36,841 bases of DNA. Source: Candidatus Woesearchaeota archaeon. Its GTDB lineage: Archaea > Nanobdellota > Nanobdellia > Pacearchaeales > GW2011-AR1. The stretch's first letter is position 1. Every line of letters begins with the position of its first letter. The DNA lies in assembly GCA_964549155.1 (NCBI GenBank), contig CAZJUG010000005.1:1-36841 (forward strand), read 5' to 3'. The notes under the pieces were generated by a model, which did not search any database, had not been told where the DNA came from, and worked only from the letters and a program-made list of their open reading frames with translations. Made by a program: the position numbers and the translations under genes. This document shows positions 20,702 to 36,841 of the stretch, piece after piece.

Positions 20702-20793
20702 ATTGAATCGAACGACCGAAGTAGGGAGCGAAAATTTCGCTTTGAATAAACTACTTTTATTCATGATTTTTATGAAATGCAAAATTTGAGTAG

Positions 20794-20818
20794 ATTCTCC
20801 CCACCTTTCTCCACTATG
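20794..20818 (+). repeat. left arm of a 25-bp perfect inverted repeat (partner inside the SplB-like radical-SAM ORF)
   Basis: attctccccacctttctccactatg is the exact reverse complement of 22479-22503. Similarity drops abruptly outside the 25-mer. Confidence 0.85.
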
Positions 20819-20850
20819 ACTGGACATAGGGGGTTTTGAGAGGTGAAGGA

Positions 20851-21366: not shown

Positions 21367-21435
21367 ATTATAATAAATAATCTTATAATCACTCTGGAGG
21401 GGTACATTTAAATATACTAAAATCCTCTAAATTAA

Positions 21436-22341
21436 ATGAAGCACAGTATTATATGGAACATCACCCGGGCTTGTCCCTGGCATTGTGATTTTTGTTGTGT
21501 TGGAGCATTGTATGTTCCAAGAGAAGAACAGTCTCAACAAAAGAGACTAGAATCTCAAGGAATAGAACTTTCTTTAGATGAAAAACTGAGAATTGTAGAG
21601 AATTTAGATAACGATTGGTTTAAATTAGATGTATCTGGAGGGGAACCTCTTCTATTCGCCGATAATAGACATATAATCGAGAGGCTATCTTCAAAGTTGG
21701 GCAAGGAGAATCTTTCTGTAACATCTACTGGAAAAGGTCTTGAGTTAGTTAGCCCTGAATGGTTGCAAGACAATGTTTCTGAGGTGGGATTTACATATGA
21801 CTTTCCTAGAGAACATTCTCCAAATAGGCCTAAGGGATATAATCAATCTAATCTTAGTGCAATCAAGAATCTTGGTGGTACTGTCAGGACTATGGCCCAA
21901 ACTCCTTTGACTAGAGACAACTCAGATCCAGAAATTATTAGTGAGATTTATCAGAATTTGAAAGATGTAAATGTAGATACCCTTCTACTTATTGGACTTA
22001 AGGGGTCTGGCAGAGGTCATGGAAAAGAAAATTTGAATTTATCAAGAAAGGAGAGACTGAGGATAGTCAGGATCTACAAGGCCCAAGAGAGCCATTATAA
22101 TGGCCCAAAAATAAAATTAGCACCAAACTTATATGGCCCTCTTGTCGAGAAATTCGTTGGTTCATTTAATATAGATACTCAAGGAAGGCTATTGTCCAAT
22201 CCATGGTCCTATAATATAGATGGAACACCTTATGCAAGAGCCATAATGGGAGATTTAAAAAGTGAAAAGCTTTCTATTTTAGTAGGAAAATTGCTCCCTC
22301 AAGCATACTTAAGACAAGTAAAGAGGAATCTAGAAAAATGA
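21436..22341 (+). CDS. radical SAM enzyme, subfamily not recognised
   Basis: CPWHCDFC (CxxxCxxC) near the N-terminus and the SGGEPLLF SAM-binding motif. No SPASM-like C-terminal Cys cluster seen. Confidence 0.8.
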   Translation: MKHSIIWNITRACPWHCDFCCVGALYVPREEQSQQKRLESQGIELSLDEKLRIVENLDNDWFKLDVSGGEPLLFADNRHIIERLSSKLGKENLSVTSTGKGLELVSPEWLQDNVSEVGFTYDFPREHSPNRPKGYNQSNLSAIKNLGGTVRTMAQTPLTRDNSDPEIISEIYQNLKDVNVDTLLLIGLKGSGRGHGKENLNLSRKERLRIVRIYKAQESHYNGPKIKLAPNLYGPLVEKFVGSFNIDTQGRLLSNPWSYNIDGTPYARAIMGDLKSEKLSILVGKLLPQAYLRQVKRNLEK

Positions 22342-23138
22342 AAGTAACAAGAAAAGAAGTCAAGTCATTATTAACAAAAAGCAACTTGCCAGAAGCAGAT
22401 TATGTAATCAACCCTTACATCGGTTGTCAACATGGTTGTAGTTATTGCTATGCAGATTTTATGAAAAGATTCACTGGGCATAGTGGAGAAAGGTGGGGAG
22501 AATTTATAGATGTTAAAACAAATGGTCCTGAAACTATCAAAAGAGTCAAGCCAGGCTCTACAATCGTTATAGGTTCTGTAACTGATCCCTATCAACCAAT
22601 AGAAGCTAAGGAACAATTAACTAGAAGAACCCTTCAGCATCTTGTTCTACATCAACCAAGATTAGAAATAATTACAAAGTCTCCTTTAATTTTGAGAGAT
22701 GTTGATTTGTTAAAACAATTTAATAATCTCAAGGTCGGAATGTCTATCGGAATATTGAATGATGAGTATGCTAGAGAACTAGAACCTTATGCTCCCTCCC
22801 CAAGCAATAGGTTAGATGCATTAAGAAAATTACATAAGGAAGGAATTTTTACCTATTTGTTTATGTCTCCCATTCTTCCAGAGTTCTCTGAGATTGGGCC
22901 TTTAATAAAAAAAGCTAAAAGATTTGTAGATGAGATTTATTTTGAAAATTTGAATATAAGGGCAAATAACAGAAAGGCAGTTCTTGAATTTGTAGCTAAA
23001 CATAAACCAGAATTAGTTGAGTTCTATAAGGGATTATCTAAGAATAGAGAATATTGGGATAGAGTAGAAAGTCGGATTGTTGAGAAATGTAAATGTGATG
23101 GAATTAAATATCGTATGTTCTTTCATCACAGAAAATGA
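22338..23138 (+). CDS. radical SAM enzyme of the SplB / COG1533 (spore-photoproduct-lyase-like 'DNA repair photolyase') family
   Basis: NPYIGCQHGCSYCYADFMKRF is the hallmark N-terminal motif of this family. ATGA overlap with both neighbours. Confidence 0.8.
   Translation: MKVTRKEVKSLLTKSNLPEADYVINPYIGCQHGCSYCYADFMKRFTGHSGERWGEFIDVKTNGPETIKRVKPGSTIVIGSVTDPYQPIEAKEQLTRRTLQHLVLHQPRLEIITKSPLILRDVDLLKQFNNLKVGMSIGILNDEYARELEPYAPSPSNRLDALRKLHKEGIFTYLFMSPILPEFSEIGPLIKKAKRFVDEIYFENLNIRANNRKAVLEFVAKHKPELVEFYKGLSKNREYWDRVESRIVEKCKCDGIKYRMFFHHRK
22479..22503 (+). repeat. right arm of the 25-bp perfect inverted repeat (codons for HSGERWGE)
   Basis: catagtggagaaaggtggggagaat is the reverse complement of 20794-20818. 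Confidence 0.85.
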
Positions 23139-23596
23139 ATCTAATTGAATTTTTAGCAAAAGCTAAGATTAAAACTTTTGCATCCCAATTTTCTATTCCA
23201 AAAGGAATCTTAACAGGAAATAAAAGATATGAGTATTCTGAAGGAGACTTTGAATATTTGGATTCCTATTTTGGGTATACCAGGGACCAAAGTACAGAAA
23301 CTATAAAGTTTCAAGGAGAGGAAGTTTGGAAAATGCGATCTCAGGGAGGAATGAGTCCCGGATTAGAGAGAGAAGCGAGAAGATGTTTCTCTTTTTTAAA
23401 AAAAGCTTTAAGAAATACCTCCGCCGATTTCCCAGTTAGGGGACCAAGACAATTTAGAAAAGGCCACTTACTCTACCTAAACGAATGGAAGGGGGATCTT
23501 CAGGAATTTGAAGGAGAAGAGAAGATTTTCTGGTTAGAGAAGGTAATTTATTCACGAACATATTCTGGAGGAACAGTCAGAAAACAAGGCCTCTAA
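23135..23596 (+). CDS. DUF5680-like protein, paralog 2
   Basis: Alignable by eye along its length with the ORF at 20851..21366. ATGA overlap with the upstream radical-SAM gene. Confidence 0.6.
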   Translation: MNLIEFLAKAKIKTFASQFSIPKGILTGNKRYEYSEGDFEYLDSYFGYTRDQSTETIKFQGEEVWKMRSQGGMSPGLEREARRCFSFLKKALRNTSADFPVRGPRQFRKGHLLYLNEWKGDLQEFEGEEKIFWLEKVIYSRTYSGGTVRKQGL

Positions 23597-23720
23597 AAGT
23601 ACACCCATTGTTTCGGACAAACCTTCTGGATGCTCCCTAACCAAAAGAACTAATTTAGACAAAATAGGAAATTTTGTTTGTTCACAGTGTGTGAAACACT
23701 CTAAAATTTTTAGAATTTTG

Positions 23721-23758
23721 AGTGGGATTTTCATCCCACTATAAGTAAGAAATAGGCC
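23721..23758 (-). repeat. second copy of the RNase P RNA 3'-terminal module (P1 3' strand + 8-bp GNRA-loop hairpin)
   Basis: Minus strand reads GGCCTATTTCTTACTT-AT-AGTGGGAT-GAAA-ATCCCACT. The 16-mer (23743-23758) is identical to 23897-23912. The hairpin has the same shape as the one after the RNase P RNA but a different sequence. Confidence 0.7.
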
Positions 23759-23896
23759 ACGAGTTACTTTTCTTTCACAAAGAAAAGTTTCTCTAAATCA
23801 AAAGAAACTTTGTTTAGGGTTTCAAAAATAAGAAATTTTTTAAACTAATTATTAACAGAAAGCGAAATCATTAATCGGGAGTTTACACTCCCGAGC

Positions 23897-24281
23897 AAGT
23901 AAGAAATAGGCCGCTTTCTGTCAGACTTTGTCCGAAGACAAACAGTCTGTGCCAACATCCGACTAAGCCCACGCAAGATTTGTGGTTTCATCAACCAAGG
24001 CATCTGTTTCAGCATTTCTCTTCATCAACATCAGTTGCTTCCCTTGAGAGTTTTTTGACATTACTGCCAATCACTTTTCAAGGCCAACATCATTTAAGAT
24101 GAGAGCTGTGTCATTTCTGTTATGGAGCTCTGCCTTACGACAGTCCTTTTACAAGGATGGTTTCTTTTGATTGCTTCCATTCAAGGAAACAAGATGTGCG
24201 GACCTTCCTCAGAATTCAAGATTGATTTTTACAATCTTTAGGCTATTAACCCTGAATCCCGAAATTGGCTATCTTACTTAC
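23897..24281 (-). ncRNA. rnpB: RNase P RNA (archaeal type-A-like), about 385 nt
   Basis: Minus strand carries CTGAGGAAGGTCCGCAC (CR-I-like, consensus GAGGAAAGUCCGGGC) and GACAGAAAGCGGCCTAT (CR-V-like, consensus ACAGAAnnnGGCUUA). The 5' GTAAGTAAGATAGCC pairs with the 3' GGCCTATTTCTTACTT as P1. Ends are approximate. Confidence 0.8.
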
Positions 24282-24373
24282 ATTTTTTAGAAGGAGTTTG
24301 AGTTTTTAAGGTTGTGGGTTTGGAAAAATTTCTCAATCAAAAGGCTTAAAAAGCCTTCCGAAGTACTAATTTT

Positions 24374-24484
<111 letters not shown>

Positions 24485-24500
24485 ACTTATTCTCTTAATA

Positions 24501-24683
24501 TTACTGGGTTCTTATCCTATAGCAATTTCCAGAATAATATACTCTTCTTTCCCGAAATGCTCTATGCCATTTAGCATCAGTTTCATCAGAAAATAAACTA
24601 TCTCTAACTTCTTGAGCCGTCATTCCAGTAGATCTTTCCACAACTTGTTCAATTTTTCTCAAGACTTCACTTTTTTCAGGCAT
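24501..24683 (-). CDS. possible 60-aa hypothetical protein
   Basis: ORF only, no motif. It lies where the Rpp21 promoter is expected, so it may be spurious. Confidence 0.3.
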   Translation of the reverse strand: MPEKSEVLRKIEQVVERSTGMTAQEVRDSLFSDETDAKWHRAFRERRVYYSGNCYRIRTQ

Positions 24684-24716
24684 AACTTTTTAATGTTCTA
24701 TTACTATATAAATTTT

Positions 24717-24962
24717 ATGTCCAGTAAACAAAAAACCCTTGAAAAAATTAAAGAACTGATTTCTAAAAAAGAGGTAAGAAGTAACAAAGCTGCGAAGAAA
24801 CTCGCAATGAAGAATAATATTAAACTTGGAAAACTCCGAAGAGAATTCTGTCAAGAGTGTTATGCTCCTTTGGAAAAAGCAAAGAGAAGAGTGAAGAAAG
24901 ATTATCTGAATGTTGAATGTTTGAAATGTGGGAAGAAAGTTAGATGGAAAATTAAAAGTTAA
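24717..24962 (+). CDS. rnp4: RNase P protein component 4 (Rpp21/Rnp4)
   Basis: 81 aa, basic N-terminal helix, zinc ribbon FCQECYAPL...VECLKCGKKVRW. ATG at 24717. Confidence 0.7.
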   Translation: MSSKQKTLEKIKELISKKEVRSNKAAKKLAMKNNIKLGKLRREFCQECYAPLEKAKRRVKKDYLNVECLKCGKKVRWKIKS

Positions 24963-25000
24963 ATCTTCAAAATGCGAATTTTGAACGAATCAAAAAATTC

Positions 25001-25198
25001 TTAGAATTTTTTGAACTTATTAACCAAATCAATATAATCTTCTTGTCCCATAAACATTGCTCTACAACAATATCTGTCTAATCCAACCTCATCCATGACT
25101 TTTCCAGGGTCTTCGCCAGCAGCAACTCTTTCTTTAAACTGCTTCCACAAATGAGCGATTGGCTTTCCACATGAAAAACATCTTATAGGAATTAACAT
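25001..25198 (-). CDS. rpoN: DNA-directed RNA polymerase subunit N (Rpo10)
   Basis: MLIPIRCFSCGKPI...RYCCR signature. 65 aa. Confidence 0.9.
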   Translation of the reverse strand: MLIPIRCFSCGKPIAHLWKQFKERVAAGEDPGKVMDEVGLDRYCCRAMFMGQEDYIDLVNKFKKF

Positions 25199-25248
25199 AT
25201 ATTTTGATGTTTCAAAGCATTTTTAAAGCTTTTGTTCTTAAAAAATAC

Positions 25249-25947
25249 ATGAAAAGGGAAATAATCAAACTAGAAAATGTATTCAAAATTTATTCTATGG
25301 GGGAAAGTAAGGTTTATGCCCTTTCAGGTATTGATGTATCTGTGAGGGAAGGAGAGTTTGTTGCCATAATGGGACCTTCGGGTTCAGGGAAAAGTACTAG
25401 TATGAATCTTGTTGGGAGCTTGGACACTCCAACACGAGGGAGTATATTCCTAGATGAACACAATATTTCCCATCTACATGAATCAGATTTAGCACAAATA
25501 AGGGGAATAAAGATAGGTTTTATTTTTCAGAGTTTTAATTTGATTAATACATTAACCGCCAAAGAAAATATTGTTCTACCTATGGTTTTCCAAGGAAAAT
25601 CTAAGGAAGAACAAGAAGAAAAAGCAAAAGAGCTTTTAGAATTAGTAGAACTTGCTGATAGAGCAGACCACTATCCAAACGAACTTTCTGGTGGACAAAG
25701 ACAAAGAGTTGCAATTGCAAGAGCTTTAGCAAATGACCCGGAGGTTATTCTTGCCGACGAACCAACAGGAAATCTGGACTCTAAAACTGGGGGGAAAGTT
25801 TTAGATTTTTTACAAAAATTACACAAACAAGGAAAAACAATTGTTATGGTTACACACGACCAAAATCTCGCTCAAAAATATGCTCAAAGAGTTTATTGGT
25901 TAAAAGACGGAAAAGTTGAAAAAGTTACAAATGGAAAGAAAAAATGA
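25249..25947 (+). CDS. ABC transporter ATP-binding protein (MacB/LolD-like)
   Basis: GPSGSGKST Walker A, LSGGQRQRVAIARAL signature, LADEPTGNLD Walker B. Start at MKREII (25249); ATG 25207 is an alternative. Confidence 0.9.
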   Translation: MKREIIKLENVFKIYSMGESKVYALSGIDVSVREGEFVAIMGPSGSGKSTSMNLVGSLDTPTRGSIFLDEHNISHLHESDLAQIRGIKIGFIFQSFNLINTLTAKENIVLPMVFQGKSKEEQEEKAKELLELVELADRADHYPNELSGGQRQRVAIARALANDPEVILADEPTGNLDSKTGGKVLDFLQKLHKQGKTIVMVTHDQNLAQKYAQRVYWLKDGKVEKVTNGKKK

Positions 25948-27164
25948 CATCAATAAAAGATTATTTTGTTTTAGCAATAAAAAACCTCAGACACAGAGGA
26001 ATTAGAAGTTGGTTAACTCTTTTAGGAATTGTTATCGGTGTTGCTGTCGTAGTTTCTTTAGTTTTTTTGGGGAATGGATTGAAACTTGCAGTGATGAATC
26101 AATTCGGGATGAGTTCTACAGAAATAATTTCTGTTCAAGCTGGGGGACTAAACTCCTACGGACCTCCTGGAAGCGGAGTTACAAATCCATTAACGATTGA
26201 AGATTTAGAAGAAATTGAGAGACTTTCTTCTGTAAAAAAAGCTATCAGAAGAAATATTGGATATTTAGAAATCGAGTTTCAAGGAATAACTGCGATAGGT
26301 TATGTTACAAATGTTCCATTAGAAGAGAGAAGATTCATTTATGAAATTGCAAATTTAGAAATGGAAATAGGAAGGTTCTTTGATGGAGGAGATTCTAAGA
26401 AAGTGGTTTTGGGATACAATTTTTTAGTAGGAAAGTCTGGGTTGGTTGACAAGAAGATTTCTCCAGGGAATAGAATCTTATTAAATGATGAACAATTTGA
26501 GGTTATAGGAATTACAAAGAAACAAGGAAGTTTCATTACAGATAATGTGGTCTATATGGTTGACGAAGATATGAAATCTCTTTTGGATTATGGAGATGAA
26601 ATTGATATAATCGCAGTTCAACCAGAATCAAAGGAAAAAATGGACCAAGCAGTTCTTGACATTGAAAAAGCCTTGAGAAGAACTAGGAATATCAAGGTTG
26701 GAGAAGAAGACTTCGAAGTTTCAACTCCTGAGGCAAGTTTGGCGATGATAAATGATATCATAACTGGTGTACAAATTTTTATCATAATCGTTGCGGGAAT
26801 TTCAATTGTTGTAGGAATCGTCGGGATTGTAAATACTATGACTACTTCCGTTTTAGAAAGAAGAAGAGATGTGGGAATCATGAAAGCAATCGGAGCAAAA
26901 AATAGTCAGATATTTTTACAATTTTTTGTTGAATCTGGAATGCTTGGTCTAACAGGTGGAGTTTTAGGAGTTCTAATCGGAACCTTGATGGGCTGGGGGG
27001 GAATAGTTGCCCTAGGAAATTTTTTAGCAACGAGTTTAACATTAGAAATTGATTGGTTAGTTATCGGAGGAGTTTTTGTTGGAAGTTTCTTAATTGGAGG
27101 AATTGCAGGTATTGCTCCCGCAATGCAAGCGGCTAGACAAAATCCGGTGGAGGCTTTGAGATGA
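25944..27164 (+). CDS. ABC transporter permease, FtsX/MacB-type
   Basis: N-terminal TM, large extracytoplasmic domain and a C-terminal FtsX-like 3-TM bundle (TSVLERRRDVGIMKAIGAK). ATGA overlap with the ATPase gene. Confidence 0.85.
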   Translation: MTSIKDYFVLAIKNLRHRGIRSWLTLLGIVIGVAVVVSLVFLGNGLKLAVMNQFGMSSTEIISVQAGGLNSYGPPGSGVTNPLTIEDLEEIERLSSVKKAIRRNIGYLEIEFQGITAIGYVTNVPLEERRFIYEIANLEMEIGRFFDGGDSKKVVLGYNFLVGKSGLVDKKISPGNRILLNDEQFEVIGITKKQGSFITDNVVYMVDEDMKSLLDYGDEIDIIAVQPESKEKMDQAVLDIEKALRRTRNIKVGEEDFEVSTPEASLAMINDIITGVQIFIIIVAGISIVVGIVGIVNTMTTSVLERRRDVGIMKAIGAKNSQIFLQFFVESGMLGLTGGVLGVLIGTLMGWGGIVALGNFLATSLTLEIDWLVIGGVFVGSFLIGGIAGIAPAMQAARQNPVEALR

Positions 27165-28366
27165 TCAATGAGGAAGGCATCAAATATGTTTTAAGAAATT
27201 TGAATAATAGGAAAACAAGAACTTTTCTTACTTCGCTTTCTATATTAATTGGGATAATCACAATTTTCATTTTTATCAGTTTTGGTTTTGGACTCTATAA
27301 TTATATTGAAGAAATGAGTTCTGGTTCTTCAATGGACAAAATAATTATTCAACCGAAGGGAAGCGGTGCCGTTCCTATGGATGATACATTCCAATTAACT
27401 GATGGAGATATAAGGGCCGTTGAAAGAGTCCCTGGAGTTCTATCTGTAAGCGGAGTTTCTTTCAAGGTCGCTGAAATTGTTAGGGGAAGTGAGAGAGTTT
27501 ATACATTTTTGATTGCTTATGACCCTGAAAAACCATTAATTATGGATGTGTTCAATATCGGAATGGAGAAGGGAAGAATGTTACAAAAGGGCGACGACAA
27601 AAAAATTGTTTTAGGATATAACTATTTATTAGAAGACAAGGTACTTTCAAAAAGCTACAGCTTAAACCAAAAGATAAATGTGCAAGGAGAAGATTTGACA
27701 ATTGTCGGATTTTTTGAAGCTGTTGGAAGTCCACAGGATGATGCCCAAGTTTATATTACTAATGACTACTTGAGAGATCTTTATCCTGGAACAGATGGAT
27801 ATGGATGGGTTGTTGCTAAGGTAGACACAGCTAATATAGATTCCATTGTTGAAAAAGTAGAAGATGCGATAAGAAAGGAACGAGACCAAAAAGAAGGAGA
27901 AGAAGATTTCTTTGTTCAAAGTTTTGAAGACTTAATGGATTCTTATTCTGGAGCATTAAATGTTGTGATTGGATTCATTATTTTGATTGCCTTGGTTTCA
28001 GTTATTGTCTCTGCAATAAACACTTCAAATACGATGATAACTTCGGTTTTAGAGAGATATAAAGAAATTGGAGTTATGAAATCCATCGGAGCGAAGAATT
28101 CTGAAATCCTTTGGATTTTCTTATTTGAATCCGCATTAATCGGATTTGTTGCTGGTTTAATTGGTGTTGGAATCGGAGCAGGGCTAAGTTATCTCGGAGG
28201 AGAAATTCTAGCTTCGCTTGGTTGGAGTTTCCTTAAACCCATGTTCTCTGTTTGGTTATTCGTTGGATGTGTTGCATTCGCAACAATAACTGGGGCAGTT
28301 TCAGGAGTTGCACCTGCAATAAGAGCTTCAAGGATTAACCCGGTTGATGCTTTGAGATATGAGTAG
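27161..28366 (+). CDS. ABC transporter permease, FtsX/MacB-type (second paralog)
   Basis: Same architecture (TSVLERYKEIGVMKSIGAK). ATGA overlap with the upstream permease. Confidence 0.85.
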   Translation: MINEEGIKYVLRNLNNRKTRTFLTSLSILIGIITIFIFISFGFGLYNYIEEMSSGSSMDKIIIQPKGSGAVPMDDTFQLTDGDIRAVERVPGVLSVSGVSFKVAEIVRGSERVYTFLIAYDPEKPLIMDVFNIGMEKGRMLQKGDDKKIVLGYNYLLEDKVLSKSYSLNQKINVQGEDLTIVGFFEAVGSPQDDAQVYITNDYLRDLYPGTDGYGWVVAKVDTANIDSIVEKVEDAIRKERDQKEGEEDFFVQSFEDLMDSYSGALNVVIGFIILIALVSVIVSAINTSNTMITSVLERYKEIGVMKSIGAKNSEILWIFLFESALIGFVAGLIGVGIGAGLSYLGGEILASLGWSFLKPMFSVWLFVGCVAFATITGAVSGVAPAIRASRINPVDALRYE

Positions 28367-28400: not shown

Positions 28401-31139
28401 ATGGAAAATCTCAGTGAAAGAGATACTAGGGAGAAGCTAATAGATGGAGCCCTCTATGAAGATGGTTGGAAAGAAGAAGATATTCGGCGAGAAGTCAATT
28501 CTGTAAAATCCGATTTTAAAACTAAACAATACAACTCTAAGAAAGGAGAAGGGAAAGAAGAAGGCAGATTCATAGATTATGTTCTTCTTGCCCTAGATAA
28601 ATCTGTTTTGGCAATTATTGAAGCAAAGAGATTTTCTTTAGATACGGAAAAGGGAAGCATCCAGGCTACAACATACCAAAAAGATATAGAATCTCAAACA
28701 GGAATTTCTGTTCCAGTATTTTTAACTAATGGTAAAAAATGGTATTTAAAAGAAAAAGGATATCCCACAAGAGAAATTTCTGGACCCTTGACACAACAAG
28801 ATTTACAAAGGAGAATGCAACTTTCTAGAGATAGACAATTGCTTTCCAATATAGGGGTCAGTCCAAAAATTTTAGATAGATCGAAGAATGTTGAAATTGT
28901 TAAACAAGTTTTGAATCACTTAGAAAAGGGAAATAGAAATGCTTTGATAAACATGGCTACTGGAACAGGTAAAACAAGAGTTGCAATGGCTTTAGTAGAA
29001 GCTTTGATAAGAGCAAATTATGTTAGAAATGTTTTGTTTGTTGTAGATAGAATTTCCTTAGGGAAACAAGCATTTGGCGCCTTTGATAACTTCTTGCACG
29101 GCGAACCTAGAACCTTATTAAATGAAGAGGGCGATTTCGATATGGACAGAAGACTTTATGTTTCTACCGTTCAGACACTGATGGCAAAGGATGAGAAGAC
29201 CGGACATAAATTTCAGAAGTTTAGCCCGGGATTTTTTGATTTAATAATTTTTGATGAGGCCCATAGATCTTATTACGACCGACAAAATTTAGTTGCTAAA
29301 TACTTTGATGCAATTAGAATAGGTTTGACTGCAACGCCTTCTAAGAGCGAAGAAAAAAATACTTATGATTTGTTTGACTGCCCACGAGGAAATCCGACTG
29401 TAAAGTATGATTATGATGAAGCCGTGCGAGATGGTGTTTTGGTTCCTTACGAAGCTCAGATTGTTTCGACAGAAGTTTTGGAGTTAGGGATTGATGGAAT
29501 GAAGCTAGACAATGAACTTAAAACTGCATTAATTAAACAAGATGAAGATCCAGAACATTTTCAAGTTTCAGGAGCGAGATTTGCTAAATATTTTACAGAT
29601 AGAAAAACCAATGAACTGATTGTTCAAGAGTTTATGAATAGATGTTATAAAACCGAAGATGATAAACCCTGCAAAACTATTTTCTTTTGTTCAAGTGTAA
29701 AACATGCAGAAGAATTGAAGAAAGTCTTCGGTTCCCTCTATCCTAATCTCAGTGAAGATGTTGAAGTGATTGTATCGGATAAACAAAGATATATGGATGA
29801 AGTTGAAAGATTTAAAAAAGATTCAAGTCCAAGAATTGCTCTTTCCGTAGGAGTTTTAGATACCGGAGTAGATATTCCTGAAATTATGAATCTTGTTTTT
29901 GTGACTCCTGTCTTTTCACATATTAGATTCTGGCAAATGCTTGGAAGAGGTACAAGAAGTTTATCTGCTTGCAAGCATAGAGGGTGGTTACCCTTATCAG
30001 ATGGAGTTCATGTAAAAGATGATTTTAGAATTTTAGATTTTAAATTTAGTGATTTCTCGAATGTAAAAGAACATCAAATCGAACCGGCAGACAAATCTAA
30101 AATTTCAGAAGATATGAAAGTCAAGATTTTTAATAAGGAAGTAGAGTTATTGAAGAAAAAGTTATCTAAAGAAGAAAAAGAGATTATTGAAAATAGAATT
30201 ATTATGGATGTAAAGAAGATTAATCCAAATTCTTTTATTGTAAAACCAAAGGCGGAAATAATTAAGAAAGTTGTTTCTAGGAAATTTGATTTGCAAGTTT
30301 ATATTAAAGAGTTACAAAACGATATTGCAAATTTAATGAAATTTACTGAATTTGGCGATGGAAGAGTTCAAACTTTTATTTCTCATTGCGTTGATTTATT
30401 TGGTTATGTTAAAGAAGGAGATATTGAAGCTATCGCAGAAGAGCAGGATTTTTTGCTAGAGAGAATTGAGAATATTTGGAGTTCAAATCTACAAGTTATA
30501 AGAGCGAAACATAAAGAGATTATGAAAATAATGCAACCTGTGTTCTGGAAAGAATTGACTTTTGCAGATATTGAATTTATGATTAGAGAAATTGCTCCTT
30601 TAATGAGATATTATGAATCCGAAAGAAAGAAAATCATTAGAATTGATGCGAAAGATTACACTCGGAATGTAGAAGACTTCAAGATGCAAGTTAAAGAAGA
30701 TCCGAATACCGAATATCTTAAGAACAGTTCATTGTTCAAGAAAATGGTAAAAGAAGGCGTTAGTTGGAAAGAACTTTTTGAAATAGAGAAAAAATTAACC
30801 GAGTTAAATTGTGCTTGGACAATCGATTACATTCAAAATGTAAGGAAAATTGATTTTGTGGTATTTTTGAGGAATATGCTGGACTTGAAGGATTTGCCAG
30901 ACCCACAAGAAATGATAAAGAATGAGTTTGAGAAGATAATTATAGAACGAAATGAAGGATATAATGCCGAACAGATTAGGTTCTTGAGACTTTTAGAGAA
31001 GTTCTTTGCCTTTAACAAGCATCTGACTCCCAAGGATCTCACAACTTATCCGTTAGCAGATGAAAACCCCTTGGATAAGTTTAGTTCTGACCAGCTTAAG
31101 CAGGTGATCAAAGAAGTTGAAGGGATAAGGATACGGTAG
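28401..31139 (+). CDS. hsdR: type I restriction enzyme R subunit (HsdR)
   Basis: N-terminal PD-(D/E)xK-like IDYVLL...IIEAKR. SF2 motifs MATGTGKT, FDEAHR, LTATP, QMLGRGTR. Long helical C-terminal region as in EcoEI-type HsdR. Confidence 0.85.
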   Translation: MENLSERDTREKLIDGALYEDGWKEEDIRREVNSVKSDFKTKQYNSKKGEGKEEGRFIDYVLLALDKSVLAIIEAKRFSLDTEKGSIQATTYQKDIESQTGISVPVFLTNGKKWYLKEKGYPTREISGPLTQQDLQRRMQLSRDRQLLSNIGVSPKILDRSKNVEIVKQVLNHLEKGNRNALINMATGTGKTRVAMALVEALIRANYVRNVLFVVDRISLGKQAFGAFDNFLHGEPRTLLNEEGDFDMDRRLYVSTVQTLMAKDEKTGHKFQKFSPGFFDLIIFDEAHRSYYDRQNLVAKYFDAIRIGLTATPSKSEEKNTYDLFDCPRGNPTVKYDYDEAVRDGVLVPYEAQIVSTEVLELGIDGMKLDNELKTALIKQDEDPEHFQVSGARFAKYFTDRKTNELIVQEFMNRCYKTEDDKPCKTIFFCSSVKHAEELKKVFGSLYPNLSEDVEVIVSDKQRYMDEVERFKKDSSPRIALSVGVLDTGVDIPEIMNLVFVTPVFSHIRFWQMLGRGTRSLSACKHRGWLPLSDGVHVKDDFRILDFKFSDFSNVKEHQIEPADKSKISEDMKVKIFNKEVELLKKKLSKEEKEIIENRIIMDVKKINPNSFIVKPKAEIIKKVVSRKFDLQVYIKELQNDIANLMKFTEFGDGRVQTFISHCVDLFGYVKEGDIEAIAEEQDFLLERIENIWSSNLQVIRAKHKEIMKIMQPVFWKELTFADIEFMIREIAPLMRYYESERKKIIRIDAKDYTRNVEDFKMQVKEDPNTEYLKNSSLFKKMVKEGVSWKELFEIEKKLTELNCAWTIDYIQNVRKIDFVVFLRNMLDLKDLPDPQEMIKNEFEKIIIERNEGYNAEQIRFLRLLEKFFAFNKHLTPKDLTTYPLADENPLDKFSSDQLKQVIKEVEGIRIR

Positions 31140-31215
31140 GGTTAGAGTAGGGGTGGTATAAAAGTAAGACTCAAAAAACCAAAAGATTTAAATAGTTCTT
31201 CAAACTAAGCTTTTT

Positions 31216-31611
31216 ATGGAGAATTCCACCCCAATTCAAAAAACAAAGGTGTTCAGAGTAAAGGTAGATCTGGAAAAAGGCCAGCTTTTTGAAGAACAAT
31301 GCCAAAATGAAAATTCCAATGTAAATGCGAAGTTAAAGGAATTTATAGAATCTTATTTGAAAGAACAGAAGAAATTCTTCTTGGCAGGGAAAAACAAAAT
31401 AGAATACAATAAAATGAAAAACAGCTTTGAGTGGTCGGCTGAATTGGACTTGGGCAAAAAAATTACGTTACTAGAAAATTTATCTTTAGAATTTTTGATG
31501 AATTTGAAAGAGGAGATAGTTTCGACAGTTCAAGAAAGAAATGAATGGGTCCATCATAGAAATCCAAGTTCTATAGCTATTCCAAGTGAATTGCTTGGAG
31601 GAACAAAATGA
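31216..31611 (+). CDS. hypothetical protein, possible N-terminal ribbon-helix-helix (CopG-like) fold
   Basis: 131-aa ORF. KVFRVKVDLEKGQLFEEQCQNENSNVNAKLKEFIESYL has a strand-helix-helix pattern; the RHH call is a weak inference. First gene after an A/T box near 31186. Confidence 0.45.
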   Translation: MENSTPIQKTKVFRVKVDLEKGQLFEEQCQNENSNVNAKLKEFIESYLKEQKKFFLAGKNKIEYNKMKNSFEWSAELDLGKKITLLENLSLEFLMNLKEEIVSTVQERNEWVHHRNPSSIAIPSELLGGTK

Positions 31612-32453
31612 GTATTGTTGTGTTCAATAACAAGCGAATAAGAAGAAAACTAGTCGATGGAGAATGGTTTTATTCAGTTGTTGATGTTGTGGGGGTTCTG
31701 GCTGAAAGTGAAAATCCGAGAGATTATTGGTACAAATTAAAAGTAAGAGAAAAAGAATCCTCCGGAATTGAACTGTCGACATTTTGTCGACAGTTGAAAC
31801 TTGTCGCAGAAGATGGCAAGTTAAGAGAGACAGATTGTGCAGATAAAGAAGCACTATTTAGAATAATCCAGTCAATTCCTTCCAAGAAGGCAGAGCCTTT
31901 CAAATTATGGCTCGCAAGAGTTGGAAGTGAAAGGATTGATGAAATTGAGAATCCCGAGCTTGCTCAAGAAAGGATGAAAGAGCTTTATGAAAAGAAAGGC
32001 TATTCAAAAGACTGGATTGATAAGAGATTGAGGGGGATTGCGGTTCGTCAATCTCTTACAGATGAGTGGAAGAAAAGGGGTGTGGAAGAGCCGATTGAAT
32101 TTGCTATTTTAACTAATGAAATTAGCAAGGCCGCTTTTGGAAAAACAATTGAAGAGTATAAAAAATTCAAGAAATTGAAAGATGAGAATCTGAGAGATCA
32201 TATGACTGACATTGAACTAATTTTTAATATGCTTGGAGAAGCTTCCACGACAGAAATAGAAAAAGTTCAAAATCCTTCTGAATTTGATGAACACTTGGTT
32301 GTTTCAAGGAAGGGGGGAGAGGTTGCTAAGATTGCTAGAGAGAAATTAGAACAAGAAATAGGAGAAGAGATTGTTAGTGAGGAAAACTATTTGGATGAAG
32401 AAGAGAGATTTGCTCGAAAGAAAAGAAAGAAGAAATTGGCGGTGATGGGATGA
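31608..32453 (+). CDS. Bro-N domain protein with DinD-like C-terminal region
   Basis: N-terminal FNNKRIRRKLVDGEWFYSVVDVVGVL fits the Bro-N pattern (R..dGe.WF.a.Dv...L). The C-terminal helical region resembles DNA-damage-inducible protein D architecture. ATGA overlaps on both sides. Confidence 0.6.
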   Translation: MSIVVFNNKRIRRKLVDGEWFYSVVDVVGVLAESENPRDYWYKLKVREKESSGIELSTFCRQLKLVAEDGKLRETDCADKEALFRIIQSIPSKKAEPFKLWLARVGSERIDEIENPELAQERMKELYEKKGYSKDWIDKRLRGIAVRQSLTDEWKKRGVEEPIEFAILTNEISKAAFGKTIEEYKKFKKLKDENLRDHMTDIELIFNMLGEASTTEIEKVQNPSEFDEHLVVSRKGGEVAKIAREKLEQEIGEEIVSEENYLDEEERFARKKRKKKLAVMG

Positions 32454-32665
32454 GTGAACCAATAGACAGAATAGTAATCTTTGAGGATAAGATTCGTGGA
32501 GATCTCTCTAGATGTAATATCTGCCAGATTAATTTTACAGCGATTCAGCCATGTATTGTTTGCTCGGCAATAATTGAGAAACAAAATAAACTCGGAAGAA
32601 GATTAAACAAAGAAGAGTTTGAAGAGTTGAGGGAATGGTTTATGGGGGTAAAAGGTGGAAGATAA
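32450..32665 (+). CDS. small zinc-ribbon protein
   Basis: 71 aa with CNIC...CIVC (two CxxC pairs). Confidence 0.5.
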   Translation: MSEPIDRIVIFEDKIRGDLSRCNICQINFTAIQPCIVCSAIIEKQNKLGRRLNKEEFEELREWFMGVKGGR

Positions 32666-33377
32666 AAAAACAGAAGCCAGAAAGAATGTCAATAACATAT
32701 TATTTTCTAAGATTTTAGATTTTATAGAACATTTTTATCCAGGCATATATGAAGAATCCCAAGAAGAATATATTAAAGAGGATGAAGACCGATTTAAAGT
32801 ATTAAAAGACAAACAAAATTTCCAAGAAGATTATAACGCTTGGTTTTTGACGAAGATGCTCCTACCTAATGGAGTTAGTGTTGTGCAAATGGCAAAATCC
32901 TTCCCAGATAGTTATTTTACAAGAGATGAGAAGAAAATGCTAAACAACTTGTTTAACTATAATGAATCTTTATTTACGATATTATCAGTTTCTAAAGATA
33001 ACAAAAACTATGAAATCATGGATTTTGCAGATAGTAAAATTTACAAAATTAAAACATTTGATTTGCCGAATAAGTTCAAGAAGGGAGATATAATCAGTGC
33101 ATTTATTGTGAGGGATATAGAAAATTCTTATTTTTTTCTTGGAGGAATTGTTTCTTGGAATGTTACAAATAAATTAGAGTTTGTTTCGGCTTTCATGATG
33201 AAAAAAAAGCTTGAGGAAGCTTTAAGGAAGAGGAGAAATCAGATTGAAATTGATTGGGAGATAGAAAGGGAAGAGCCTGAAAATAAAGAAGATTTATGGG
33301 AAGAGAAGACTAAGATAAATGGTGTTTGGGTTGATGATAAAACTGGAAAAGTCTTGGAGGGTGAAGATGAAGACTGA
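32655..33377 (+). CDS. hypothetical 240-aa protein, acidic termini, no family recognised
   Basis: Long stop-free ORF. GTG start at 32655 preceded by GGGGG. 11-nt overlaps with both neighbours. Confidence 0.6.
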   Translation: MEDKKTEARKNVNNILFSKILDFIEHFYPGIYEESQEEYIKEDEDRFKVLKDKQNFQEDYNAWFLTKMLLPNGVSVVQMAKSFPDSYFTRDEKKMLNNLFNYNESLFTILSVSKDNKNYEIMDFADSKIYKIKTFDLPNKFKKGDIISAFIVRDIENSYFFLGGIVSWNVTNKLEFVSAFMMKKKLEEALRKRRNQIEIDWEIEREEPENKEDLWEEKTKINGVWVDDKTGKVLEGEDED

Positions 33378-33552
33378 AGAGATAATAGGTTTAATCTTCG
33401 GTGGATTTGTAATATTCTTACTTTTAGTTTATGGAGTTTTCTCCGATGTTTTGAAGGGATTTATCGGAGCATTTGGAGTTGGTTTTGGTTTGATTTTAGG
33501 AATTTTATTTGTTTTGATGATTGTTTTAGGATTGATGGGGAAGAGGGGATGA
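33367..33552 (+). CDS. 61-aa two-TM Gly-rich micro-protein
   Basis: MKTEEIIGLIFGGFVIFLLLVYGVFSDVLKGFIGAFGVGFGLILGILFVLMIVLGLMGKRG. Strong GGAGGGTGA Shine-Dalgarno-like element 5 nt upstream of ATG 33367. Confidence 0.55.
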   Translation: MKTEEIIGLIFGGFVIFLLLVYGVFSDVLKGFIGAFGVGFGLILGILFVLMIVLGLMGKRG

Positions 33553-35450
33553 GCAAAATTTTATTAAACCCTGAGCAAGTAGATGCAATAAATACAAGTG
33601 AAGGCAATTTATTAATTCTTGCCAGTGCGGGCACAGGAAAGACTACAACCATTGTTGAAAGATATGTAAATCTGGTGGAGAATCAGGGAATTTCTCCAAA
33701 TCAAATAATGATGACTACGTTCACAAATAAAGCTGCAAAAGATATGATTGGAAAAATTAAAAAGAAAACAGACAAATTGCCCTATTTTATAGGAACCATG
33801 CATTCCCTATTTTTAAAGATATTAAGAGATCATGCTGAAAAATTAAATATTAATTCTAATTTTACCCTATTAACTGAAGAAAGTGACAAAAAGAAATTAG
33901 TCAAGCTAGTCTTACTTGAAAAAAACATTGAACCAACTAAAAACAATATTTCCTATTTGTTAAGGAGAATTGAACAATTTAAAAATAGGGGCATAAATTC
34001 GGATGATTTAGATGAGGTTTTGGATGCCGAAGAGGAAAAACTCGTAGAGGAAGAAATAGAAGGAGAGTTTGTTAGGGTTACTTCTAGTATAAAACGTCTG
34101 GCTAATTTTGTATATAAGAAATATCAACAAAAATTAAGAAGCTTGAATAAACTAGACTTTGATGATATACTCCTGTTTATATATATTCTACTTGATAAGA
34201 ATAAAGAATTAAGAGAAGAATACAAAAACAAATTCAAAGCTATAATGGTAGATGAAGCTCAAGACTTAAATATTGTTCAAAGAAATATTTTAGAATTATT
34301 ACAAAGCAATAATCTTTGTTTGATCGGGGACGATTGTCAAAATATTTATGCATGGAGAGGTTCTTCAAATGAATTTATCTTTAGTTTTGATAAATCTCAT
34401 AAAAAAATTGTTTTAAAGGATAATCATCGCTCTTCGAGGAATATCATTTCTAATGTGAATAAAATAATAGATGAAATCGCTTTTAAAATAGACAAGAAAT
34501 TGGTGTGCACCAGGGAAGATGGGGAGGTTATCCGAATAAGAGAATTTAGAAGTTCGAGGGATGAATTATCATTTGTGGCTTTTGAAATAAAAAAGTTACT
34601 TCAATCCCAAGAAAAGCCAGAAGATATAGCCATTTTGTTTAGAACAAATAAGATAGGAAAACAAATGGAAAGGATTCTTAGAAAAAATAAGATTCCGTGT
34701 CATCTATCAAGAGCAAAAGGTTTTTTTGAGAGAGAAGAGATTAGGGACATCTTATCATTTATTAAATTAAAAATAAATCCAAAATCTTTCTTAGATTTTG
34801 AAAGATTGTTAGGGCTGGTTGAAGGTGTTGGAAAATCAAAACTAGAAGTTCTGAGTAAAATCGCATTAAAAGAAAAGATAGACGTTCGAGGGTCTTTAGA
34901 TTATTTGGATAAAATTAATCTCAAAGAGAGTACAAAAAAAAGCTTGGAATCGCTGAACTCTATATTAAAAGATAATAGTATTAATCCCGTGCTTTCTTTT
35001 TTAAACTTTTTTGAGTATAAATTAAAATTAGAAAAGAAATATCATGATACTCCTGAAAAGATAGAAGACAAATTAGAAAATATTGGAATTTTAGAAGAAT
35101 TTGTTAAAGATTATGAATTTAGTGAATTGGGAATAAGAGAGTTCTTAGATAGTTTAATTGATCTTGAGAGAAAAGAGAATGATAAAAACAAAATTGTTTT
35201 AACTACTATCCATAGTGCGAAAGGTTTGGAGTGGAAGCATGTTTATCTTGTCGGATGTAACGAGAATATATTGCCTTCGTATAGGGGAAGCTTAAGTAAA
35301 ATCAAGAGGGATGATGAACTTAGATTGTTTTATGTAGCCGTATCTAGGGCAAAGGATTTTTTAACAATAACTTATTCCTTGTTTAAAGATTTTGAGAATT
35401 TTGAACCCTCTCAATTTTTAGAGATAATCGAGGGAGATTTTGAAAGATGA
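33549..35450 (+). CDS. UvrD/Rep/PcrA-like superfamily 1 helicase
   Basis: ASAGTGKTTT (motif I), MVDEAQDLN (II), GDDCQNIYAWRGS (III), NHRSSRNI (IV), TIHSAKGLEW (V/VI region), YVAVSRAKDFL (VI). 633 aa. Confidence 0.9.
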   Translation: MSKILLNPEQVDAINTSEGNLLILASAGTGKTTTIVERYVNLVENQGISPNQIMMTTFTNKAAKDMIGKIKKKTDKLPYFIGTMHSLFLKILRDHAEKLNINSNFTLLTEESDKKKLVKLVLLEKNIEPTKNNISYLLRRIEQFKNRGINSDDLDEVLDAEEEKLVEEEIEGEFVRVTSSIKRLANFVYKKYQQKLRSLNKLDFDDILLFIYILLDKNKELREEYKNKFKAIMVDEAQDLNIVQRNILELLQSNNLCLIGDDCQNIYAWRGSSNEFIFSFDKSHKKIVLKDNHRSSRNIISNVNKIIDEIAFKIDKKLVCTREDGEVIRIREFRSSRDELSFVAFEIKKLLQSQEKPEDIAILFRTNKIGKQMERILRKNKIPCHLSRAKGFFEREEIRDILSFIKLKINPKSFLDFERLLGLVEGVGKSKLEVLSKIALKEKIDVRGSLDYLDKINLKESTKKSLESLNSILKDNSINPVLSFLNFFEYKLKLEKKYHDTPEKIEDKLENIGILEEFVKDYEFSELGIREFLDSLIDLERKENDKNKIVLTTIHSAKGLEWKHVYLVGCNENILPSYRGSLSKIKRDDELRLFYVAVSRAKDFLTITYSLFKDFENFEPSQFLEIIEGDFER

Positions 35451-36424
35451 TAAATGAATCTGGATTAGAACTTAAAAATGAAAGCATTTCGGAGATTGAA
35501 ATATACTTTGATGAAATCGAGCCAGACGAAAAGAATTGCAACTATTTAATTTTGGGAGCATTATTTTTAGAAACTAATAACAAATCAAAGATTCTGAATA
35601 GATTACTGAATTATAGATGTTTAAATGATAAAAATATAAAATGGAGTAAAGAGTACACTACATGTCCCAATAAGGAATATTGCAGAGAAAAGTGGCACAA
35701 ACAAAACAATACAGAAATTCATTTTGTAGAAATCAGAAATGGATCAAGCTCATCACAAATAAAAATAGCTAAGAGATTAATAGAATTATACAAAGTAGAA
35801 AAAAGTCTTAAAATGGCGATATTATATATAGATTTGAAAAAACTCGATAAGTCTCTTTTTAATGACTCGAATGCTAACATATACAATAAATTTTTCAGAA
35901 CAATAATAAATTATGGATTAAAATGTTTTTACAATTTGAATAATAAAATTCAGATAAAAAATATTTTTTATGATAAAAAGGAGGAGCTTGAAAGACATAG
36001 TTTTTTCAAAGATTATAATTTTGATAAGCTAAAATACGAAACTAATGACAATGTTGAATTACTAGGTAAAATATTATTTATAGAGTCAGATCATAAAAGT
36101 GAGGGAAAATATTCAGATGAATCTAATTTTATCCAGTTAGTTGATTTAATGTTGGGCATCATTAGGCAGAATATTTTCTATGTTTCAAAAGATAAGATAA
36201 AATGTGATGTTGCTAGAACCCTCAGAAAAGAACTAAATGACTTACAAGAGAATAGACATTCGCATAATCGGCTTAAGATAAGCTTTTTTCCAAAAAATGG
36301 ACTTAAATCTGTGGTGGATTTAGATAATAAGATTTCAACAGAAAGAAAGGATGAGTTTTTATCTTTAGAAGACTTTAAATTAAACATGCCTGCTCAAGAG
36401 GCAGATTTGAGCAGATGGTTCTAA
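35447..36424 (+). CDS. DUF3800-like protein (family assignment tentative)
   Basis: N-terminal IEIYFDEIEP and C-terminal FIESDHKS...FIQLVDLMLGII resemble the two DUF3800 motifs (xxxDE.. and DS...iQlaDl). ATGA overlap with the helicase gene. The ORF itself is solid (325 codons). Confidence 0.5.
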   Translation: MINESGLELKNESISEIEIYFDEIEPDEKNCNYLILGALFLETNNKSKILNRLLNYRCLNDKNIKWSKEYTTCPNKEYCREKWHKQNNTEIHFVEIRNGSSSSQIKIAKRLIELYKVEKSLKMAILYIDLKKLDKSLFNDSNANIYNKFFRTIINYGLKCFYNLNNKIQIKNIFYDKKEELERHSFFKDYNFDKLKYETNDNVELLGKILFIESDHKSEGKYSDESNFIQLVDLMLGIIRQNIFYVSKDKIKCDVARTLRKELNDLQENRHSHNRLKISFFPKNGLKSVVDLDNKISTERKDEFLSLEDFKLNMPAQEADLSRWF

Positions 36425-36425
36425 A

Positions 36426-36841
36426 ATGAAACCCTCTAATATCCCAACTGGCTGGCAAGAAGTTGAACTAGGCACCATAACAGAATGTTTAGATGGAAAA
36501 AGAATCCCTATAACGGAAGGGGACAGAAAAGGAGGAGATGTTCCTTATTATGGTGCAAATGGACAAGTTGGTCTGATTGACAAACCAATTTTTAATGAAG
36601 AACTACTATTAATCGCAGAAGACGGCGGAAGTTGGGGAAAAGGACAAAAATGCTCTTATATTATCAACGGAGAAGCATGGGTTAATAATCATGCTCATGT
36701 CTTAAGGATAATAAAATCAAAAGCAGAAATAAAATTCCTAATGTACTGGTTAAATAATTCTGATTTAAATAAATATATCTCCGGAACAACAAGGGGAAAA
36801 TTAAATCAAAAGATTATGAACAGAATAAAAATCCTCCTCCC
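36426..36841 (+). CDS. hsdS: type I restriction enzyme specificity subunit (HsdS), N-terminal part, runs off the right edge
   Basis: Hand translation gives MKPSNIPTGWQEVELGTITECLDGKRIPI...LLIAEDGGSWGKG...NNHAHVLRI...FLMYWLNNSDLNKYISGTTRGKLNQKIMNRIKILL, a typical HsdS target-recognition domain pattern. Confidence 0.8.
   Translation, partial: MKPSNIPTGWQEVELGTITECLDGKRIPITEGDRKGGDVPYYGANGQVGLIDKPIFNEELLLIAEDGGSWGKGQKCSYIINGEAWVNNHAHVLRIIKSKAEIKFLMYWLNNSDLNKYISGTTRGKLNQKIMNRIKILL

Follow-up and report, generated by a model that had tools for sequence, protein, structure and literature searches.

Seven genes nested between hsdR and hsdS in a type I restriction-modification operon from a DPANN-type archaeon

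In EcoprrI, a type I restriction-modification (R-M) system, the nuclease PrrC is masked by the R-M complex. There is ample documentation of other genes lodged in type I R-M operons: PrrC itself is found almost exclusively embedded in such systems, more than half of the genes nested in them are of unknown function, and 145 PADLOC candidates, the PDCs, were defined by lying inside BREX, DISARM, or type I R-M loci (Payne et al. 2024, bioRxiv 10.1101/2024.01.29.577857). The defense genes tgvAB lie in, and are co-transcribed with, the type I R-M operon of Vibrio cholerae VPI-2 (PMC11411939), and DarTG2 is found in the RptR-R-M island of enteropathogenic Escherichia coli (EPEC), where the first open reading frame (ORF) encodes a small repressor, RptR, of the whole unit (PMC12255303). 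Archaeal immunity is poorly charted, especially in DPANN archaea; according to a 2026 survey, these archaea are enriched in single-gene PDC candidates, and R-M and CRISPR-Cas systems are under-represented in them (PMC12988326). Here, we describe a type I R-M locus in a stretch of 36,841 nucleotides (nt) from a Candidatus Woesearchaeota assembly (GCA_964549155.1, contig CAZJUG010000005.1), hereafter the window. A preliminary description had reported that seven same-strand ORFs (ORF2–ORF8) separate hsdR from hsdS, and the ORF listing bears this out at the same coordinates (Table 1). The locus is not a new category of system, and the analogy drawn in that description, with type I loci as docking sites for immunity genes and PrrC in EcoprrI as the classic case, is apt for genes nested between hsdR and hsdS.

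We consider it likely that the locus is an EcoAI/EcoEI-like R-M operon of a DPANN-type archaeon in which a conserved frame houses independently acquired cargo. ORF2 would belong to the frame, and the other six ORFs would be separate acquisitions from a pool shuffled among related operons, with one cargo slot between ORF2 and hsdS and a second between hsdS and hsdM. With the promoter on one side of the cargo and the methylase genes on the other, the cargo would be expressed whenever the R-M system is maintained, and the outcome would be layered immunity, like that provided by PrrC, TgvAB, or DarTG2 in bacterial type I operons. TgvAB and DarTG2 resemble the arrangement proposed here in being independent defense genes placed between hsd genes and co-transcribed with them. 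They are bacterial, however, with one two-gene insert each and a demonstrated function, whereas the window is archaeal and carries seven genes of at least five independent origins and with putative functions. What is new lies in the detail, namely a two-slot frame in DPANN-type operons that is probably led by an RHH (ribbon-helix-helix) gene, the coupling of DUF3800 genes to hsdS, and the repeated embedding of PcrA/UvrD helicases; the window insert is an unusually cargo-rich archaeal instance, and the block itself is unique. The candidates that arise are the hsdS-coupled DUF3800 clade, the embedded PcrA/UvrD helicase, an OB-fold protein (ORF5), and PDC-S13 (ORF3).

A recurrent hsd frame with variable cargo

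The translation of hsdR shows a D..EAK nuclease motif and an FDEAH box, and it matches Pfam ResIII (E = 2e-37), Helicase_C, and EcoEI_R_C as well as PADLOC REase_I (6e-96); its match to NCBIfam restrict_EcoAI (8e-69) lies below that model's cut-off. Judged by motifs and profiles, hsdR is a type I restriction subunit of the EcoAI/EcoEI (type IB-like) kind. The start of hsdS matches Pfam Methylase_S (2.8e-16) and PADLOC Specificity_I (8e-31). Together with an archaeal RNase P RNA in the window (23895-24281, minus strand), the profile matches of hsdR and hsdS uphold the earlier assignment to an archaeal type I R-M locus. As also reported earlier, the window has no hsdM; the lowest E obtained with three hsdM proteins as tblastn queries was 0.3. 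In 9/9 related hsdR-first loci hsdM lies 3' of hsdS, 0–2.6 kb and zero to four small genes away, and here we predict it just past the end of the window.

We compared ~130 related loci (designated by L and a number), 113 of them fetched with the ORF8 alignment from genomes and metagenomes; ORFs were called in the fetched loci and their proteins clustered. The frame that recurs runs hsdR, TATA box, putative RHH gene (ORF2), variable cargo, hsdS, more cargo, and hsdM. By hsdR, the closest operon is that of the Pacearchaeota metagenome-assembled genome (MAG) L130 (74% identity), and L013, L017, L058, L114, and L121 share 47–55% identity with the window. The cargo between ORF2 and hsdS consists of a DUF3800 gene only in L058, where a Shedu-type SduA_C nuclease gene follows hsdS; an ORF5 homolog only in L114; a YhcG/DUF1016 nuclease and DUF3800 in L046; a Schlafen-AlbA2/HATPase_c_4/HTH protein (ATPase), a protein of 223 amino acids (aa), and DUF3800 in L013 and L017; five small genes and DUF3800 in L035; and UvrD, two membrane proteins, and a 629-aa protein in L121/L122. 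In L130 the same interval holds an AlbA2 ATPase, a 195-aa protein, UvrD, and four further genes, and an ORF5 homolog follows hsdS. The hsdS gene of L130 is split into two ORFs of 238 and 121 aa (L130:11281-12473) and may be a frameshifted or half-size specificity gene.

The seven-gene block recurs in none of the ~130 related loci, which bears directly on the earlier proposal of a single unnamed seven-gene defense module. Under that proposal, the seven genes would form one multi-gene defense or abortive-infection system acting with or alongside the R-M enzyme, as their tight same-strand coupling, their position inside a defense operon, and the lack of a match to any single named system would suggest; Cas12a2-linked TPR-DUF3800 loci with UvrD also show that these two domains can cooperate (PMC10910872). 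However, the block is co-conserved in no other genome examined, and 0/113 DUF3800 loci contain UvrD or any relative of ORF4, ORF5, ORF6, or ORF7. UvrD and DUF3800 never adjoin ORF5 homologs, and DUF3800, ORF4, and ORF6 never adjoin the UvrD homologs in the neighborhoods fetched. The closest operon, L130, shares only ORF2, UvrD, and ORF5 with the insert, in a different order and in different slots, and ORF3 is a stand-alone candidate that also occurs inside a CRISPR-Cas operon. Because the block never recurs and each cargo gene has its own distribution, we regard the seven genes as not one system, and the single-module proposal as very improbable. The earlier remark that no named system is matched stands for the set as a whole, whereas ORF3 on its own maps to PDC-S13 in PADLOC. 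A tightly coupled gene string in a defense operon thus need not be one system.

Smaller units fared similarly. UvrD plus DUF3800 was rejected as a pair, UvrD being absent from all 113 DUF3800 loci, and for the pairs ORF6–UvrD and ORF4–ORF5 no ORF4 or ORF6 homolog lies beside any fetched UvrD or ORF5 homolog.

Several points weigh against a frame with independently acquired defense cargo. The case for defense roles of the cargo is a purely positional one, and ORF7 may be a housekeeping helicase and not a defense gene, because its family is widespread and conserved in DPANN MAGs and has core-gene neighbors in L125 and L131. The comparison set was seeded on homologs of ORF8, ORF5, and ORF7, so that operons with none of the three were left out, and the homolog searches for ORF4 and ORF6 were confined to profile libraries and the fetched loci. 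The UvrD and ORF5 families co-occur with the same hsd frame in L130, and there may be a looser functional link among some cargo genes. Moreover, the whole R-M operon, whose right-hand border is past the end of the window, may sit on a mobile island, because integrases accompany the L114 and L121 islands and the genomic neighbors of the window and L130 differ.

Table 1. Features of the R-M locus in the window (positions in nt from the start of the window).
Feature	Positions	Strand	Length and content
hsdR	28401-31139	+	912 aa (ORF listing of the window)
TATA-box-like element TTTAAATA	31187-31194	+	29 nt 5' of the ORF2 ATG; putative archaeal promoter
ORF2	31216-31611	+	131 aa; RHH-like N-terminus and conserved C-terminal domain
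ORF3	31608-32453	+	281 aa; Bro-N and DinD-like C-terminus; PDC-S13
ORF4	32450-32665	+	71 aa; CxxC...CxxC, zinc-ribbon-like orphan
ORF5	32655-33377	+	240 aa; GTG start, in agreement with homologs; OB fold
ORF6	33367-33552	+	61 aa (77 aa if the ATG at 33319 is used); two-transmembrane (TM) peptide
ORF7	33549-35450	+	633 aa; PcrA/UvrD-type superfamily 1 (SF1) helicase
ORF8	35447-36424	+	325 aa; DUF3800, RNase HII-like fold
hsdS	36426-36841	+	N-terminal 138 codons, first target recognition domain; runs off the window end

The putative promoter and ORF2 at the head of a probable cargo transcript

Each junction claimed in the preliminary description was seen when the junction sequences were read directly: four ATGA overlaps (31608, 32450, 33549, and 35447), two overlaps of 11 nt (32655 and 33367), and a single nucleotide between ORF8 and hsdS. 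The ORF listing has no antisense ORF of more than 76 aa in the insert. A scan of the insert for bacterial-type terminators gave one weak plus-strand site, not above shuffled expectation, and the counts from the bacterial promoter and terminator scan, which does not cover archaeal promoters, equaled shuffled expectation. The A/T-rich, promoter-like box noted earlier near 31186 was found as TTTAAATA, at a position that is kept in related loci. Because of this positionally conserved TATA box, the overlapping codons, and the lack of a convincing terminator, the insert and hsdS are very likely one transcription and translation unit, as had been proposed.

A TATA-like box lies 27–30 nt before the ORF2 start in 8/9 homologous hsdR–ORF2 spacers, which are otherwise unrelated in sequence. 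In the ninth, that of L046, the box is at about −31, provided that the true start is an ATG eight codons into the called ORF. TTTAWATA occurs only seven times on the plus strand of the whole window. Several related loci have an inverted repeat of the GTyTAC...GTAGAC type just 5' of the box; the window has no obvious repeat of this type. Archaeal TATA spacing of this size puts the transcription start at about the ATG, giving a leaderless mRNA. From the TATA–ATG spacing and general knowledge of archaeal promoters, we infer that TTTAAATA is the archaeal promoter of a leaderless transcript running from ORF2 to hsdS.

In each of the nine related hsdR-first loci an ORF2 homolog comes after hsdR, directly so (L013/L057, L035, L046, L058, L114, L130, and L121/L122) except in L017, where a 235-aa ORF intervenes. 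The ORF2 family is a small one (67 cluster representatives in a set of 1.84 billion proteins), and ORF2 has no match in Pfam, PADLOC, NCBIfam, or PHROG profiles. Matched against the PDB, the family profile has RHH proteins in its first five places (ParG, 0.01; AvtR, 0.019; HP0222; an SSV 56B-type protein; and 2kke), with DinJ also named among the best, and the version in L121/L122, at 57 aa, is RHH only. The earlier RHH-like call is in line with the identity of these matches, which are weak (E of 0.01–0.5 for the first five and 0.01–1 with DinJ counted, none significant); Pfam gives none. As a conserved first gene behind a conserved TATA box, with RHH-type profile matches, ORF2 is probably the resident autoregulator heading the transcript of the cargo, hsdS, and hsdM. 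The EPEC island offers a parallel, having a small repressor as its first ORF; RptR, however, is all-helical and not RHH. The window and ~10 relatives present a compact archaeal design, in which one transcript, probably RHH-led and leaderless, combines a changing accessory set with the specificity and methylase genes.

Two features of the ORF2 family stand beside this. One is an R-x4-H string (ERNEWVHH) within the C-terminal domain of ORF2, at residues ~114–123 (window 31555-31580), which is present in the L035 and L130 homologs and absent from more distant ones. The L130 homolog (L130:4971-5393) has sub-threshold HEPN matches (E of 0.002–0.004).

A DUF3800 gene coupled to hsdS and an embedded helicase

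ORF8 matches Pfam DUF3800 (PF12686) at 6.6e-6 and 27.3 bits, above the cut-off of 21, in agreement with the DUF3800-like call made earlier. Among 39 aligned homologs, taken from 44 found in a collection of 5.8 billion proteins, residues D22 and E23 are nearly invariant and E90, H92, D176, S214, H216, Q230, and D233 invariant, and the DE...D...QxxD acidic motif set is intact in ORF8. An AlphaFold2 (AF2) model based on the 39-sequence alignment (pLDDT 87.6) has as its best Foldseek PDB matches RNase HII (1eke, E = 1.8e-4), Tk-RNase HII, RNase HIII, and human RNase H2A, with modest TM-scores of 0.34–0.49. From this model, we predict ORF8 to be a nuclease of the DUF3800 family that is folded like RNase HII.

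A DUF3800 gene lies directly 5' of hsdS, at a spacing of −50 to +1 nt, in 19/86 evaluable loci, that is, those with enough downstream sequence, and in 7/10 relatives of at least 45% identity. This coupling is seen whether the gene order is hsdM-DUF3800-hsdS-hsdR or hsdR-...-DUF3800-hsdS-hsdM, and in archaeal and bacterial MAGs alike, and by Pfam the two commonest neighbor families of the DUF3800 loci are HsdS and HsdM. We regard it as the most testable lead to come from the locus.

The coupling recalls PrrC in EcoprrI, a nuclease gene nested in and co-expressed with an hsd operon. PrrC, however, combines an ABC-ATPase N-domain with an anticodon-nuclease C-domain, whereas the fold predicted for ORF8 is RNase HII-like, and none of the seven proteins matched the PADLOC PrrC model, so that operon position alone is analogous. 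Masking by the R-M complex, as known for PrrC, would be conjecture for the DUF3800 protein here.

An R-M-dependent sub-module offers another explanation for the same data. The DUF3800 nuclease could be held in check or recruited by HsdS/HsdM, or UvrD and a nuclease could degrade HsdR-cut DNA; in its fuller form, the DUF3800 clade would be a dedicated R-M partner and second-line effector, and UvrD would have been recruited as well by RHH-led DPANN operons. The nuclease would then be PrrC-like and released on attack against the R-M system, or be directed by HsdS/M to nucleic-acid targets, while PcrA/UvrD would process HsdR-cut DNA in place of the missing RecBCD. The recurrence of DUF3800 directly 5' of hsdS across 19 loci, both gene orders, and both domains, the conserved catalytic-type residues and RNase HII-like fold of ORF8, and the near-exclusive nesting of PrrC in type I R-M (bioRxiv 10.1101/2024.01.29.577857) are consistent with such a partnership, as are the three independent operons with UvrD in the hsdR–hsdS interval and a fourth copy ~3.4 kb from a type I system in L119. 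Against it, R-M genes are missing from the neighborhoods of many DUF3800 family members (mostly below 35% identity), a different methylase/PLD-SNF2 pair adjoins others, neither of the two closest non-identical relatives (L034 and L037) is R-M-linked, and the embedded UvrD copies are not monophyletic, the closest homolog lying between two RFC genes. We therefore think the sub-module doubtful, in its narrower form and equally as a dedicated partner clade, and continue to prefer a conserved frame with independently acquired cargo, in which a physical link between the DUF3800 protein and HsdS would be conjectural.

A second recurrent home of this DUF3800 family is beside genes for an Eco57I-type methyltransferase of ~1200 aa and a PLD-nuclease/SNF2-helicase of ~1050 aa (L053, L065, L067, L083, L084, L091, and L113; e.g. 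L083:1724-10927). In L083 a gene for an Mrr-nSTAND3 NTPase lies downstream. These loci look like another R-M-like or DISARM-like system in which DUF3800 is embedded. PADLOC scans of the genes beside DUF3800 in related loci returned nothing, and 7/39 ORF8 relatives weakly matched PDC-M04A (best 1e-7), while ORF8 of the window has no PADLOC model.

DUF3800 proteins with a predicted RNase H2-like fold are also known from type VII retrons (PMC7736814) and from Cas12a2-linked TPR-DUF3800 loci, where UvrD is an occasional neighbor (PMC10910872). ORF8 belongs to the same Pfam family, has the same predicted fold, and likewise adjoins a UvrD gene. The recurrent partner of its DUF3800 clade, however, is hsdS, not UvrD. 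Profile searches found no reverse transcriptase, Cas12 or other Cas domain, or TPR domain in the locus, and the window contains no CRISPR or other repeat array. The DUF3800-associated RNA motifs (DUF3800-I to -XI, drum, and skipping-rope) gave no Rfam match at gathering score, and within 31000-36841 there was no Rfam match even at E ≤ 1. Identity with a type VII retron or a Cas12a2-TPR-DUF3800 system was thus ruled out, there being no reverse transcriptase, non-coding RNA, Cas12, or array.

ORF7 matches Pfam UvrD-helicase (4e-67) and UvrD_C (9e-56), which agrees with its earlier description as an SF1 helicase, and also TIGR pcrA (7e-112, below cut-off) and PADLOC GajB (9e-87). Its best PDB match is PcrA (1pjr, 7e-79, full length), and all helicase motifs are intact, among them GTGKT, DEAQD, and VAVSRA. 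The GajB match recalls Gabija, which was rejected: none of the nine locus proteins matches GajA (an OLD-family ATPase-TOPRIM protein), AAA_15, or TOPRIM, the neighbors of ORF7 are a two-TM peptide and the DUF3800 protein, and ORF7 is better described as PcrA/Rep/UvrD by its pcrA and full-length PcrA matches.

ORF7 has 666 homologs below 1e-60. Among the 119 matches listed, identity is 50–72%, and the named homologs there come from Nanoarchaeota, Woesearchaeota, and Pacearchaeota MAGs. In two of the eight other distinct contexts (L121/L122 and L130), the homolog lies in the hsdR–hsdS interval, making the window a third case, and in L119/L120 it lies ~3.4 kb 5' of another type I system, from which four small ORFs and a GmrSD gene separate it. 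Four contexts have no R-M gene nearby: the homolog lies between two RFC subunit genes in L125, near the S6e and MgsA genes in L131, near tRNA synthetase genes in L123/L124, and after an HATPase_c_4/HTH gene in L126. The R-M-embedded copies are not each other's closest relatives, and the homolog closest to ORF7 is the one between RFC genes. Recurrent capture of UvrD might reflect the processing of restricted DNA.

The remaining cargo, mobility, and flanking sequence

ORF3 matches PADLOC PDC-S13 (PDLC04920) end to end (2.2e-118, residues 2–273 against positions 6–278 of 286), as well as phrog_15286 (7e-98), Pfam Bro-N (6e-8), and NCBIfam DinD (9e-6, below cut-off). By these profile matches it is a member of the single-gene candidate PDC-S13, and the Bro-N/DinD-like call made earlier agrees with the Bro-N and DinD matches. 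The locus in this respect presents the very situation of the guilt-by-embedding study, whereas ORF2, ORF4, ORF5, ORF6, and ORF8 have no PADLOC model. The literature searched yielded no paper naming PDC-S13. ORF3 shares 50–59% identity with bacterial homologs; one of these, at 51%, is on the Arcobacter cloacae plasmid pACLO (L127, NZ_CP053834.1:58385-59281), where it is nested in a type I-B CRISPR-Cas operon with cas4 and cas1 on either side. The ORF3-type gene is thus nested in another kind of immune operon too.

ORF5, for which six homologs were found, has no match in Pfam, NCBIfam, PHROG, or PADLOC profiles. Its AF2 model (pLDDT 81.8) shows a helical N-domain, an OB fold at residues ~103–168, and a long C-terminal helix, and the protein ends in an acidic tail. 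The best Foldseek PDB matches, which cover the OB domain only, are Pyrococcus abyssi RPA32/RPA14, human RPA, Ten1/Stn1, and cold-shock domains (E of 7e-4 to 5e-2), and against viral structures the model gave generic OB-fold matches only. On the basis of this modeled fold, ORF5 probably binds single-stranded nucleic acid. An ORF5 homolog alone fills the hsdR–hsdS slot in L114, and one fills the hsdS–hsdM slot in L130.

ORF5 homologs are preceded, with overlapping codons, by the gene for a 395-aa Cas4-like PDDEXK_1 nuclease (L115:8817-10615) or elsewhere by that for a free-standing 122-aa protein (L116-118, with L116:6941-7922 as an example, and L130:12470-13469) homologous to the C-terminal ~100 residues of that nuclease. 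The window lacks the first member of this conserved gene pair, and the unrelated ORF4 holds its position.

The earlier zinc-ribbon and two-TM calls for ORF4 and ORF6 agree with a CxxC...CxxC pattern in the ORF4 translation and with two hydrophobic stretches in ORF6 (Kyte-Doolittle 19-residue means of up to 2.6–2.8). Neither protein has a match in Pfam, NCBIfam, PHROG, or PADLOC profiles, or a relative in any fetched locus. Small, mutually unrelated hydrophobic ORFs with one to four TM segments are strikingly common in these archaeal hsd operons (L114:11691-12540; L121:9582-10261 and 13290-14097; L035:5207-6058; and window 33367-33552). Each is tightly coupled and lies on the coding strand, and the hsdS–hsdM interval is especially rich in them.

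The insert could be read as leftover provirus or mobile-element cargo (antirepressor, single-stranded DNA-binding-like protein, helicase, and small regulators) without a defense role, which landed in the hsd operon or around which the operon was assembled. Bro-N proteins are typical phage proteins of the antirepressor type (phrog_15286), the pairing of ORF5 homologs with a Cas4-like PDDEXK_1 nuclease is one that viral recombination modules typically show, the related R-M islands of L114 and L121 are flanked by integrases, and G+C falls within the insert from ~0.36 to 0.27–0.30. The insert, however, contains no integrase, capsid, terminase, or other structural gene, there is no integrase in the left flank (18051-28366), and att-like repeats are absent from the insert and its borders, where only short matches of chance quality occur. 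IMG/VR viral contigs contain no relatives of ORF5, ORF7, or ORF8, GenBank phages contain none of ORF8, and the perfect same-strand translational coupling to hsdS argues for a maintained operon and not debris. Ordinary provirus genes, which the preliminary description had named as the outcome that would undo its proposal, are thus a highly improbable explanation.

The G+C profile over 31000-36500 falls from ~0.36–0.37 across ORF2–ORF3 to 0.27–0.30 across ORF7–ORF8 and is also low in the 3' third of hsdR (0.29–0.30), which fits a patchwork operon history. Tyrosine-recombinase (Phage_integrase) genes flank the hsdR...hsdM island of L114 on both sides (L114:3121-4278 and 15642-16928), and another lies 5' of the R-M island in L121 (L121:158-1342), suggesting that this operon type travels on integrative islands.

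The 10 kb 5' of hsdR carry genes for CysRS, tRNA-Phe, radical-SAM proteins, RNase P RNA, 5S rRNA, and a MacB-type ABC transporter. The RNase P RNA gene and a lone plus-strand 5S rRNA gene stand back to back within 23895-24486 and are separated by ~90 nt; the window has neither a 16S nor a 23S rRNA gene. Two DUF5680 genes (20851-21366, minus strand, and 23135-23596, plus strand) flank two adjacent radical-SAM genes (21436-23138) in a cluster that adjoins tRNA-Phe (20526-20597). Farther upstream, a 27-nt tandem repeat (10648-10731, 3.1 copies, 75% matches) lies in the interval that separates two ORFs of the minus strand (9557-10594 and 10790-12196).

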